Positions 38,609 to 49,188 of a stretch of 64,000 nucleotides of DNA are shown piece after piece. Made by a program: the position numbers and the translations under genes. The notes beneath the pieces were generated by a model. That model searched no databases. It was given only the letters and a program-made list of their open reading frames with translations, and was not told the origin of the DNA. The stretch lies in the IMG/VR virus record IMGVR_UViG_3300027974_001778, positions 62,001-126,000 of that record; one strand, 5' to 3'. The stretch comes from an uncultured virus (IMG/VR IMGVR_UViG_3300027974_001778) (taxonomy: Duplodnaviria; Heunggongvirae; Uroviricota; Caudoviricetes). How positions within the stretch are numbered: position 1 is the stretch's first letter; every line of letters starts with the position of its first letter.

Positions 38609-39022
38609 GGGGGTGTCCAGGTATTGATTGCAGTAGTTAGGGTAACCAGGCACGTAGTCAGAATTCATCTATGACTTAAATCTATGGTGAAGAAAATCAA
38701 ACGGCAAAACTTTTGCTAAAATGGCTGCTTTAGGTTTAACTAGAGAAGCTGTTGTTGTTGGTGCTTAATTAGTACAGAACAACATTCGGGTCGATGTACA
38801 TATAACCTAGGAACAGAAGTACTCAAGGTGTAATACCACCCAAAGATGTATTAGGAGTCTTGTTCAGGGGTCTACTCCAACACAAGTGAACCCGACACAG
38901 TTATTGGTTACGATGTCAAAATAGGAACCATTTATTTGTCAGTTGAGAACTAACTGAATAAACGTGTAGTCTGTTTATGTTAATATTGTAAGACGCGGGT
39001 TCGATTCCCGCCACCTCCACCA
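38609..39022 (+). ncRNA. ssrA: tmRNA; predicted tag (A)GKTFAKMAALGLTREAVVVGA* at 38703-38768
   Basis: GGGGGTG/CACCTCC-ACCA acceptor with G3.U, T-arm GCGGG-TTCGATT-CCCGC, 414 nt, internal tag ORF. Confidence 0.93.
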
Positions 39023-46989: not shown

Positions 46990-47235
46990 TTAATTAATAA
47001 ATTCTTCTGTGTTTATGTTATGTTCGTCTAATATTTCGTATATCTTTCCAAACACTAACTCTAAAGTTTCGTACTTATCAACATCTTTACCTTCTAAAGA
47101 CCACTCTAAAGACTTTTTAGTATTATGGGTAATTTCCCATAATGCCATAGCCATATCAAAAGACTTAACCGCTCTTTTATGAGCAATTACTTCATCTTGG
47201 TCATTTAAATCAAATTCTAATATTCCTTTTGCCAT
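46990..47235 (-). CDS. hypothetical protein
   Basis: MAKGILEFDLND ORF between tRNAs. Confidence 0.75.
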   Translation of the reverse strand: MAKGILEFDLNDQDEVIAHKRAVKSFDMAMALWEITHNTKKSLEWSLEGKDVDKYETLELVFGKIYEILDEHNINTEEFIN

Positions 47236-47249
47236 AATATATATTTTTG

Positions 47250-47321
47250 AGGTCGATACAGGATTCGAACCTGTGTAAATAGTTTTGCAGACTACCGCCT
47301 AATCCACTCGGCCAATCGACC
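47250..47321 (-). tRNA. tRNA-Cys(GCA)
   Basis: Cloverleaf; loop CTGCAAA; U73. Confidence 0.92.
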
Positions 47322-47507
47322 ATTTAACGTTTCTTTAATTTTATATTTTTTACATCTTTTTTTAGGTATCTCAACATAATATGAACCAAATACAGAAATA
47401 AAAAGTCCAACATAGTTTTCTCCTTGTTCACTAACTTCTTGTAAAACGGTTCCTTCATATAAATGAGGAAAAATATCCGCGCTATCTTTTTTTACAACTA
47501 CTTTCAT
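47292..47507 (-). CDS. hypothetical protein (3' end runs 30 nt into tRNA-Cys)
   Basis: ATG with A-rich leader. Confidence 0.55.
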   Translation of the reverse strand: MKVVVKKDSADIFPHLYEGTVLQEVSEQGENYVGLFISVFGSYYVEIPKKRCKKYKIKETLNGRLAEWIRR

Positions 47508-47519
47508 TTTAATTTATTT

Positions 47520-47738
47520 TTAATGTGTTCCGTTTGTTAATGAAATCCCATGCCTTACTCCTGTAATGAAATCTTCAATTTCTTCTTCGGTCATATTGTT
47601 ATATCTCTTACCGACAGTATGTCCAATCTCATTACCACAATCACTTAAATCTCCTTCGTATATTGTTACATCTGATTTTCCTTTCAAAGATACAGAAATC
47701 CAAGATAAATCACTACTGTTAAATGTTCTTTTTTCCAT
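47520..47738 (-). CDS. hypothetical protein
   Basis: ORF in tRNA cluster. Confidence 0.7.
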   Translation of the reverse strand: MEKRTFNSSDLSWISVSLKGKSDVTIYEGDLSDCGNEIGHTVGKRYNNMTEEEIEDFITGVRHGISLTNGTH

Positions 47739-47743
47739 ATTTT

Positions 47744-48367
47744 TTAATTTAATGAATTTGGGTAATACAATAATGTCGGGTTCTTTTTTTGGATATCAAC
47801 CTCGGGATATCTTTCCTTAAATTTCATCACATTAAAAGGTTGAGTTATAATATGGAACCCACTTCTTGTTTTAATAAAAGTCATTCCTTGTTCTTTTCCC
47901 GCCTCTTTCTGTAACTCGTTTATATATTCTCTCATTTTAATTTGACTTGGAGAATGGTTAAATCCATCAATGGATACATTATCAATATCAATAATCCATC
48001 TTTTCTCTTGAGTCTTTATCTGTCCCACAACCGAGTCAAATAACCCCTTTTGGTTCTGAACTCCATTCTTAATTCTCTCAGCCAAACTTGCCAACATATC
48101 CAAAGACACATCTCTGTGATTTTGTTTCTGAACATGAATGTAAGCTCTTGCCTTGAACATCTCACATAATTGCATCACCTCATCATATCTCCTTTCCAAA
48201 TGGTCAACTGATTCAATGCAATATGTTTTAATAGTTCTAACCGACTGATGGTTATCTCTTTCTCCTTCAGGTTGGTCTTTCTTACGTTTGAAAACATACA
48301 GCATATAGAAGTCACCCTTCTCCTCAAAGTTCAATAATGGTTTTATTATGTCTATATTGTTTATCAT
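47744..48367 (-). CDS. hypothetical protein with AEP/primase-like motifs
   Basis: WIIDID and KTRSGFHII; ATG at 48367. Confidence 0.55.
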   Translation of the reverse strand: MINNIDIIKPLLNFEEKGDFYMLYVFKRKKDQPEGERDNHQSVRTIKTYCIESVDHLERRYDEVMQLCEMFKARAYIHVQKQNHRDVSLDMLASLAERIKNGVQNQKGLFDSVVGQIKTQEKRWIIDIDNVSIDGFNHSPSQIKMREYINELQKEAGKEQGMTFIKTRSGFHIITQPFNVMKFKERYPEVDIQKKNPTLLYYPNSLN

Positions 48368-48381
48368 ATCATTTTTTTTTG

Positions 48382-48484
48382 TTGTTAAGGTGGGATTCGA
48401 ACCCACAACGTAGTCTCGTAAAGAGAATCATCACCGTTTCGACTTACCGAGCCCTGTGCTCGTTTACATATCTACTACTTAACT
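48382..48484 (-). ncRNA. tRNA-like ncRNA 1 (acceptor + T arm, non-canonical interior)
   Basis: GTTAAG/CTTAAC stem, T-arm GTGGG-TTCGAAT-CCCAC, internal CGAGC/GCTCG and TCTC/GAGA hairpins. Confidence 0.6.
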
Positions 48485-48558
48485 TCCTACCCCACTTCAC
48501 CAGCTTAACGGACTGGCTGCCATATGGGAGTGGGGGTTTCCCGTTAATTCGGGACTCC

Positions 48559-48680
48559 GCGATGTTGCGGGAATCGAACCCACTCGATGAACTACTTGTG
48601 ATATGCACCAACCATTTGCTCCAATCCTAGTATTAAGGAGTGTTACCTACAAATCACCATCATTCAACCCTTTAACACCA
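48559..48680 (-). ncRNA. tRNA-like ncRNA 2 (acceptor + T arm, long interior helix)
   Basis: TGGTGTT/AACATCG stem, T-arm GTGGG-TTCGATT-CCCGC. Confidence 0.55.
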
Positions 48681-48827
48681 AATTTGACTACTGACTGACT
48701 CCTTTCGAACTTTGAGGGTTTGTATCATTCAATATCAGTAGTCCAAGGCTGTAGGAGCTCATCTTTACACTTAGGCTCTTTGTCTTCTCATGTTGCAACA
48801 TTTACGACCGTAGCGTCACCTTGTTTG

Positions 48828-48900
48828 TGGTACGAGGTGGGTTCGAACCACCGACAACTTGTTCTTCAGACAAGCACTCTACCAACTGAGTTATCGCACC
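48828..48900 (-). tRNA. tRNA-Phe(GAA)
   Basis: Cloverleaf; loop CTGAAGA. Confidence 0.92.
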
Positions 48901-48972
48901 AAGTTTAAAGTTAAAGTCGCCCACACTTGTTCGGGGCGGGACCTTTCGGTCACCTTCGACATCCCCTCAACT

Positions 48973-49188
48973 TTAATTCACTTCAATATCTTCCAAAGGT
49001 ACATCTTCTCCCTGAGTATGTTTATAAACTGTATTAAAAAACTCTCCTAACAATCTATAGTCCTCAGGAATCATATGACAAAAATCAAATGCAGGAATTG
49101 CACCATGAATTTGACCTTGTACTACCTTATCAAACTTATCATCTGGTTTGTACTCAAACACAGTATGTCCTCTAAAAATATATTTCAT
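48973..49188 (-). CDS. hypothetical protein
   Basis: 71-aa ORF in tRNA operon. Confidence 0.65.
   Translation of the reverse strand: MKYIFRGHTVFEYKPDDKFDKVVQGQIHGAIPAFDFCHMIPEDYRLLGEFFNTVYKHTQGEDVPLEDIEVN

Follow-up and report, generated by a model that had tools for sequence, protein, structure and literature searches.

A conserved tRNA-like RNA gene family without an anticodon arm in phage tRNA arrays

The question raised by this locus is what kind of gene a phage carries when a member of its tRNA array has the acceptor-like stem and the T arm of a tRNA around an interior with no 7-nt anticodon loop. The element, 103 bases long, lies on the minus strand of the window (the whole 64,000-nucleotide stretch of phage DNA that was analysed), between tRNA-Phe (48827-48900) and a gene for a 186-aa protein starting at 48304. 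The window comes from a 127-kb IMG/VR record that is estimated to be 41% complete, with a G+C content of 33% and dense coding under the standard code. ARAGORN detected 21 tRNA genes on the minus strand, at about 45-54 kb of the window, and Rfam at the gathering score returned 21 tRNAs and one tmRNA. A first-pass annotation, made from the letters of this DNA, had described at 48484..48382 an acceptor-like stem followed by U8-A9, a perfect T arm and two small hairpins, and all of these features were present in the sequence on that strand (Table 1; RNA position i is window position 48485-i). The annotation had also predicted that the element would receive no standard tRNA call, which was borne out. 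None of the 21 ARAGORN tRNAs was located at 48382..48484, the tmRNA mode of the same program found nothing at the element, and Rfam gave no match there at the gathering score; at E<=10 only the 17-nt T arm was matched, by the tmRNA model (14.3 bits). A blastn search of the region against phage GenBank matched tRNA-Phe alone. The position in the array and the lack of a tRNA call agreed with the proposal of a tRNA-like, non-decoding RNA gene that is not a standard tRNA.

Table 1. Coordinates of the tRNA-like RNA gene and of its parts in the window.
Feature	RNA positions	Window coordinates	Strand	Basis or remark
Whole tRNA-like RNA gene	1-103	48382..48484	-	covariance model R1, 112.2 bits; alignment A3
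Acceptor stem, 5' strand, AGTTAAG	1-7	48478..48484	-	pairs with 48383-48389
U8-A9 connector	8-9	48476..48477	-	invariant in 17/17 sequences
Helix P2, 5' strand, GTAG	10-13	48472..48475	-	pairs with 48410-48413
Junction strand J1, AUAUGUAAA	14-22	48463..48471	-	8/9 columns invariant
Hairpin hp1, CGAGC ACAGG GCTCG	23-37	48448..48462	-	5 pairs
Hairpin hp3, D-arm-like	42-58	48427..48443	-	4-bp stem, 9-nt loop
Hairpin hp2, TCTC TTTAC GAGA, anticodon-like position	59-71	48414..48426	-	covariation
Helix P2, 3' strand, CTAC	72-75	48410..48413	-	covariation; RNAalifold
T arm, GTGGG TTCGAAT CCCAC	79-95	48390..48406	-	covariation; Rfam matches the T arm only
Acceptor stem, 3' strand, CTTAACA	96-102	48383..48389	-	family alignment, covariation, RNAalifold

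The public runs containing the region were freshwater or lake samples. In one DNA run, variant contigs about 91% identical to 48375-48470 were found with a different downstream flank, and a 30-letter flank taken from them led to two IMG/VR loci, L106 and L107, with a diverged copy of the element. Two reciprocal patterns, both built from features common to the window copy and the diverged copy, were scanned against IMG/VR. The pattern with hp2 and the T loop fixed gave 9 loci, and the pattern with positions 8-21 and the T loop fixed gave 24 loci, of which 23 were true members and one was a chance match. The motif left free in each reciprocal scan was unchanged in all loci (9/9 and 23/23). The family thus collected comprised 24 copies including that of the window, all of them in phage contigs and mostly within tRNA arrays, with 17 distinct sequences that were 71-99% identical (mean 82%). 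A single copy per record was found in each of the five whole records. These copies ruled out a one-off element, an impression given by scans of IMG/VR and JGI metagenomes anchored on the acceptor stem and the T arm of the window copy, which had returned only identical copies and unrelated tRNAs; it is in these two anchors that the family varies. The idea, suggested by the variant contigs, that the interior evolves faster than its flanks and is unconstrained was also rejected, as the altered positions either covary or belong to linkers or to the hp3 loop. A 73-base skip (48582 to 48656) in one DNA contig was disregarded because only 25 letters lay on its shorter side.

With covariance model R1 the window copy scored far above everything else in 377 kb from 68 sources, where no score exceeded 33.5 bits. 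When the pattern of positions 8-21 and the T loop was run over 185,579 prokaryote species, each represented by a single genome (genome_contigs), it gave five matches and no members. Rfam 15 contained no family matching this RNA, and no description of it was found in the literature searches. The two core motifs were absent from six supplement files of a catalogue of viral structured RNAs (PMC10690425); three other files were outside this search, so that the catalogue may still hold the family.

Six helices were recovered in the family alignment A3: the acceptor stem (1-7/96-102), P2 (10-13/72-75), hp1 (23-27/33-37), hp3 (42-45/55-58), hp2 (59-62/68-71) and the T arm (79-83/91-95). They build an outer three-way junction of acceptor stem, P2 and T arm and an inner four-way junction of P2, hp1, hp3 and hp2. 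In the covariation test, 99.7% of 578 cells were standard pairs and 12 of the 34 pairs (59 cells) changed on both sides; the 34 included a five-pair loop-to-junction pairing that contributed none of the 12 changes. The observed pairing, cell count or covariation score was reached by 0 of 500 shuffles, and when partners were slid by 1-3 columns as a control, pairing fell to 34-43%. Furthermore, RNAalifold returned the same six helices from the alignment without any pairing input. The single-sequence fold of the window copy was no better than that of shuffled sequences (z -0.25 and -0.66), so that the support for the fold comes from the relatives and not from energy. The pairing between loop and junction (18-22/63-67) fits all 17 sequences and never varies on both sides; it was left unclaimed because, having no linker nucleotides, it appears sterically doubtful.

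All 12 pairs of the acceptor and T stems were supported, seven of them changing on both sides (4/7 in the acceptor stem and 3/5 in the T arm, the latter 100% paired), with a T loop UUCRANY. The GTTAAG/CTTAAC stem of the first-pass annotation does pair in the window copy (2-7 with 96-101), but the relatives have a 7-bp acceptor stem, and the A1.A102 mismatch at its first pair occurs in the window copy alone. In the same way, the two hairpins described for the interior, hp1 and hp2, were confirmed, but P2 and hp3, both supported by covariation, had been overlooked. P2, also predicted independently by RNAalifold, was paired in 100% of cells, with G12-C73 in 15 sequences and A12-U73 in two. The stem of hp1 was likewise 100% paired, one pair changing on both sides, and its loop varied in sequence and in length (3 to 5 nt). 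In hp3, 100% paired as well, pair 43:57 was U-A in nine sequences and G-C in eight, pair 45:55 was A-U, G.U or U-A, and the loop contained GG and an invariant G (G51). Pair 59:71 of hp2 was U-A in 12 sequences, C-G in three and A-U in one, around the invariant core CUCUUUACGAG.

The most constant parts of the family were U8-A9, the junction strand AUAUGUAAR, the sequence GUAA and hp2 with CUCUUUACGAG, and the acceptor and T stems were variable. The constancy of positions 8-21 and of hp2 was partly imposed by the search patterns, one of which fixes both U8 and A9. Where they were left unconstrained, in the scan anchored on hp2, U8-A9 and J1 were each identical in all nine loci, and the hp2 loop UUUAC was identical in the 23 loci found by the pattern that leaves this loop free. 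Members lacking both motifs could not be found by these patterns, and the true family may thus be more variable. Taken together, the element is very likely a conserved, structured and non-decoding RNA.

The RNA cannot form an anticodon arm and hence cannot decode. The D stem expected after positions 8-9 (10-13/22-25) was not formed, positions 10-13 pairing with 72-75 with one compensatory change, and the D-arm-like hairpin hp3 was placed 32 nt further 3' than a canonical D arm. The order of hp3 and hp2 resembles that of D arm and anticodon arm, and the distance from hp2 to the T arm is canonical. The earlier statement that D and anticodon arms are missing was therefore only partly right, since the canonical arms are absent but a D-arm-like hairpin and a short anticodon-like hairpin exist. 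The outer two pairs of the canonical 5-bp anticodon stem were unpaired in 15/17 and 17/17 sequences, leaving hp2 with 3-4 pairs. Pair 62:68, C-G in 16 of the 17 sequences and U.G in the other, closes the loop to 5 nt, in accordance with the reported lack of a 7-nt anticodon loop.

An oddly built decoding tRNA, such as an ochre suppressor with the anticodon UUA in C-UUUAC-G, would have to act as it is or after removal of the 32 nt between A9 and hp3, and this is very improbable. The resemblance of hp3 and hp2 to D and anticodon arms at the right distance from the T arm, together with an acceptor stem, a T arm and a 3' trailer that are those of a tRNA gene, would fit it, and with 32 nt deleted in the D region ARAGORN did call a tRNA-Stop(tta). 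However, calls were given by 20 of 2040 deletion variants here, and shuffled interiors gave at least one call in 28/40 cases and at least 20 in 8/40; the deletion test is thus no evidence for decoding, and the scan was rejected as evidence for an intron because the controls yielded calls as often. Besides the short anticodon-like stem and the loop closed to 5 nt, P2 joins the supposed insert to the variable region with a compensatory change, which makes the insert part of the fold, and we know of no bacterial splicing route for such an insert. A self-splicing (group I) intron was also discarded, as no Rfam intron match was found at E<=10 over 47200-49000 and the extra 32 nt lie between A9 and hp3 and not in the anticodon loop. 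With the standard code the coding density is already high, stop-to-stop frames of 100 codons or more adding up to 1.03x the genome length, and TAA, the main stop codon, ends 73 of 98 long frames, so that an efficient ochre suppressor would be harmful. Finally, the discriminator varied among A, G and U.

When six other members were compared with the Rfam tRNA model, one (L122) reached 31.4 bits, above the cut-off of 29, through an alignment with 16- and 26-nt inserts that disregards the supported helices; the other five had no match at E<=1. One member thus passes the tRNA threshold for the wrong reasons, which matters for annotation, and the gene is otherwise invisible in current phage annotations because tRNA finders skip it.

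The genomic slot was surveyed in 80 related loci of 324 relatives, retrieved via the downstream 186-aa protein. In all 16 of the closest loci from non-identical phages (L005-L020; 92-99% protein identity), tRNA-Lys(UUU) was the last tRNA before the 186-aa gene; an identical contig (L004) had the tRNA-like element. Aligned over the slot, near-identical flanks enclosed either the 103-nt element or a 75-nt tRNA-Lys, and tRNA-Lys was absent from the record of the window. Hence the element is dispensable. It is no general replacement for tRNA-Lys, as both coexist in other relatives (4/6 arrays compared), and in L127-L129 the order Phe, element, Lys was found in a row. The six arrays compared were G000 and L146-L150, with about 20 kb examined in each; tRNA-Ala was absent from all of them. 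Of 23 member loci, 20 had tRNA genes at a distance of up to 1.2 kb, without exception on the strand of the element, and in several arrays the gaps to the neighbouring tRNAs were down to 4-7 nt; the family was spread over at least five different array contexts.

The absence from all 16 closest relatives, with tRNA-Lys in the slot, would suit a tRNA pseudogene or a neutral recombination scar in a fast-shuffling array, as would the unremarkable single-sequence fold and the other uncalled T arms and oversize tRNA-like pieces of related arrays. This explanation is nevertheless close to refuted. Seventeen distinct sequences, down to 71% identity, keep six helices by compensatory changes together with an unchanged unpaired core, and conservation is highest in the interior, with variation in the acceptor and T stems, contrary to what decay would produce. 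The occurrence in at least five array contexts also speaks against it, and the minimum identity of 71% with differing neighbours argues against an artefact of very recent descent. A decaying ordinary tRNA with an unconserved interior, which the first-pass annotation had named as an outcome that would count against it, is at odds with an interior that is conserved and covaries in the relatives, so that this check came out in favour of the annotation.

The preferred explanation is that of a tRNA-framed, structured and non-decoding RNA gene family of about 104 nt, in which the frame probably serves as a scaffold for processing and stability and the invariant core would bind a partner. Very large freshwater phages would carry the gene as a tRNA-array cassette that is cotranscribed with the tRNAs. 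The 12-bp helix of acceptor stem and T arm would direct RNase P to cut at the 5' end and would allow the 3' trimming and CCA-adding enzymes to complete the 3' end, giving a stable RNA of tRNA size. The invariant inner domain (junction strand AUAUGUAAR and hp2 stem-loop) would be the working part that binds the partner, most likely a protein recognising tRNA. That the RNA is processed by the tRNA machinery is probable: excision by tRNA-processing enzymes is a reasonable conclusion from its position in the arrays, on the tRNA strand, with the same spacing and the same 3' trailer. The discriminator, A103 in the window copy and A in 11, G in four and U in two of the 17 distinct sequences, is followed by a C in all of them (48381 in the window), as it is in 81 of 86 array tRNAs from the six arrays. 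The mismatched first acceptor pair of the window copy might weaken processing. Contigs from RNA libraries covered 48403-48553, 48432-48950 and 48478-48841 at a depth of 2-8; DNA carry-over is possible, contigs cannot show RNA ends, and no inference is drawn from their stopping short of 48340-48402 and hence of the T arm. In these 81 tRNA genes the trailer began with C, most often as CAA, and not with an encoded CCA.

Several known RNAs share parts of this design. In the engineered tRNA scaffolds of Ponchon and Dardel, designed for the expression of structured RNAs, a foreign folded domain is reportedly placed in a tRNA frame and is processed and stabilised by tRNA enzymes; those scaffolds are said to be man-made, with the D arm kept and the insert replacing the anticodon arm, whereas the present family is natural and P2 occupies the D stem position. 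The YrlA and T4 stable RNAs C and D, to which the element had been compared, are alike in kind, but membership failed for both. The T4 rnaC (stable RNA species 1; with rnaD beside it, NC_000866 70908-71171) also belongs directly to a phage tRNA array, in the orientation of the tRNAs, and has a canonical T arm at its end (CCGGG UUCGAAU CCCGG), a weak closing stem and a large non-tRNA interior. Its length is 139 nt, its interior differs from that of the element, and rnaD lacks a T arm; the present family differs by its full 7-bp acceptor stem and its nested four-way junction. Neither T4 gene resembled the family in sequence or by model: R1 reached 16.1 bits over a part of rnaC, below scores of up to 23.6 bits for T4's own tRNAs, and had no match in rnaD. 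To our knowledge, rnaC has no known function.

The YrlA-type Y RNAs are described in passages of Chen et al. (2014, PMC4201824) as non-coding RNAs of about 100 nt with a tRNA-like module of T arm, D arm and acceptor-like stem. According to the same passages, the YrlA of Mycobacterium smegmatis has an acceptor stem of 7 bp and is a substrate of RNase P and of CCA addition, nuclease protection is proposed as a role of the tRNA fold, and the 5' and 3' ends of YrlA form the Ro-binding helix with the motif GNCGAAN0-1G (PMC4201824). Compared with this description the family has the opposite topology, its ends being the acceptor stem itself. The motif GNCGAAN0-1G was absent or unconserved in alignment A3, and no TROVE protein (Rsr, Ro60; PF05731) was found in five phage records, each only 36-41% complete.

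The tRNA-like domain of tmRNA (RF00023) likewise combines acceptor stem and T arm with a helix that departs from the core at the place of the anticodon stem; unlike tmRNA, the family has no G3.U70, no tag reading frame and no pseudoknots, and is 104 nt long. The RNA could in principle be aminoacylated and used outside normal decoding, either by donating the amino acid to a transferase or by entering stalled ribosomes as a minimal tmRNA-like molecule. The full 12-bp acceptor/T-arm helix with a tRNA-type 3' trailer, the outer three-way junction with the layout of the tmRNA tRNA-like domain and the presence of the phage's own tmRNA are consistent with such a role, which is nonetheless very improbable. 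The third acceptor pair is U-A in 16/17 sequences and U.G in one, and not G3.U70; the 58-nt interior holds neither an open reading frame nor a pseudoknot body; and since both acceptor stem and discriminator vary, there is no constant identity set at the acceptor end. The tmRNA gene of the phage lies at 38609-39022 (+) and was full length (RF00023, 93.9 bits), with no ARAGORN report in the window or in the whole record.

As regards the partner, no protein-gene neighbour common across lineages was found, which leaves no clue to it. The 186-aa neighbour had no Pfam family above threshold, its sole assignment being a PHROG of unknown function. No tRNA enzyme was detected by Pfam among 17 nearby ORFs, and no defence or counter-defence gene linked to the tRNA-like gene was found. 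The partner could be an enzyme acting on tRNA or a defence that targets tRNA, though this is doubtful.

The idea put forward at the outset was that of a decoy for anticodon nucleases or tRNA-sensing defences. As a specific decoy or inhibitor of a host defence that cuts or senses tRNA, for example by anticodon nucleases such as PrrC, RloC, PARIS AriB or Septu PtuAB, the RNA would draw the enzyme in with its tRNA frame and, through its altered core, either trap it or avoid being cut. Such a role falls within the preferred explanation as one particular form of it, and we regard it as unlikely. The frame is tRNA-like, and an invariant core is what a surface recognised by a protein would show. In addition, the letters C-U-U-U of hp2 recur in the anticodon loop (CUUUUAA) of the phage tRNA-Lys, which fills the same slot in relatives, and UGUAA within J1, when read by eye, appears to repeat the letters of the anticodon loop of tRNA-Tyr(GUA). 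These likenesses are short, however, and could be due to chance. The substrates of known anticodon nucleases are 7-nt anticodon loops, and the 5-nt loop on a 4-bp stem is unlike them. Moreover, the element replaces no targeted tRNA, since it coexists with tRNA-Lys(UUU) in 4/6 arrays and with tRNA-Tyr in 6/6, and the lack of a linked defence or counter-defence gene also counts against a decoy. In favour, phage tRNAs have already been discussed, in a passage of PMC13096335, as supplements or decoys against tRNA-cutting defences.

A further form of the preferred explanation, tentative and rather improbable, is that of a natural tRNA-scaffolded effector RNA: host tRNA enzymes would mature and protect the domain, and the domain would sequester or inhibit a host factor recognising tRNA; immune nucleases that cut tRNA and enzymes that modify or charge it are examples. 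If true, this would be a so far undescribed type of RNA-based counter-defence.

The usual reading of phage tRNA arrays allows them only two roles, to supplement codons or to supply spare parts against defences that cut tRNA. The array resident described here is well conserved, has a defined fold and is not a tRNA, and its invariant core must be read by something. The role of the non-decoding tRNA look-alikes of phages has, as far as we know, been an open question since the T4 stable RNAs were found, and this small, easily synthesised RNA offers a way of asking what they do.

Additionally, several other elements were observed in these arrays. The spacer 48486-48559 (-), of about 72 nt after tRNA-Phe (GGAGTCCCGAATTAACGGG...GTGAAGTGGGGT), was almost letter-identical in ten relatives, whose tRNAs differ by 10-20% and are thus less conserved than the spacer; competing helices are possible in it (GGAGT/ACTCC, CCCG/CGGG, CCCCAC/GTGGGG and CCAG/CTGG). 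In L043, a different tRNA-like element of 115 nt (1982-2096, +) occupies the same slot after the conserved spacer. Its 7-bp acceptor stem (AGTCGAC/GTCGACT) is perfect, it has a T arm, an 80-nt interior and an MFE of -36.6, and it received no ARAGORN call.

Two loci, L003 and L103, were rejected as family members, being unrelated tRNAs with the same acceptor stem. The first, from an unrelated phage (1441-1526, +), is a tRNA whose anticodon is GAU (Ile) and whose variable arm is long; ARAGORN and Rfam (52.2 bits) both call it, and it shares its acceptor stem and T arm with the window element. Odd tRNA-like matches to the tRNA-Sec model (32.8 bits) and to the tmRNA model (23.7 bits) were found near it.

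Oversize tRNA-like genes were found in L138 (975-1077, -), L043 (485-577) and L077 (4326-4406), with the acceptor stem AGUYAGG/CCURACU, which is the commonest acceptor stem of the tRNA-like RNA family. They have a canonical D arm and a 40-nt insert at the place of the anticodon arm, that of L138 being matched by Rfam tRNA with 34.7 bits, and they may represent the stock from which the frame of the family came. Elements of 105-107 nt in L070 (5329-5433) and L073 (5801-5907), both on the plus strand, combine a D arm with a pair of T-arm-like hairpins; between the two loci the inner hairpin covaries (CTAGGG/CCCTAG versus CAGGG/CCCTG).

Directly after tRNA-Phe, the window has a 267-nt insertion (48560-48826, -) that is absent from relatives such as L011 and L005. 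It ends with an uncalled T arm (48567-48583; GTGGG TTCGATT CCCGC, then AACATCG), for which a tRNA-like closure of 121 nt is possible (TGGTGTT with AACATCG). No family was found for the insertion, and comparison ruled out that it is a remnant of the tRNA-Phe of the relatives. Inside it, 48678-48749 (-) is a stretch of 72 nt with a 9-bp stem (GACTACTGA/TCAGTAGTC), 87.5% identical to a stretch of L043 between tRNA-Tyr and tRNA-Met and with shorter matches in L045, L048 and L070, and it may be another small array-resident RNA.
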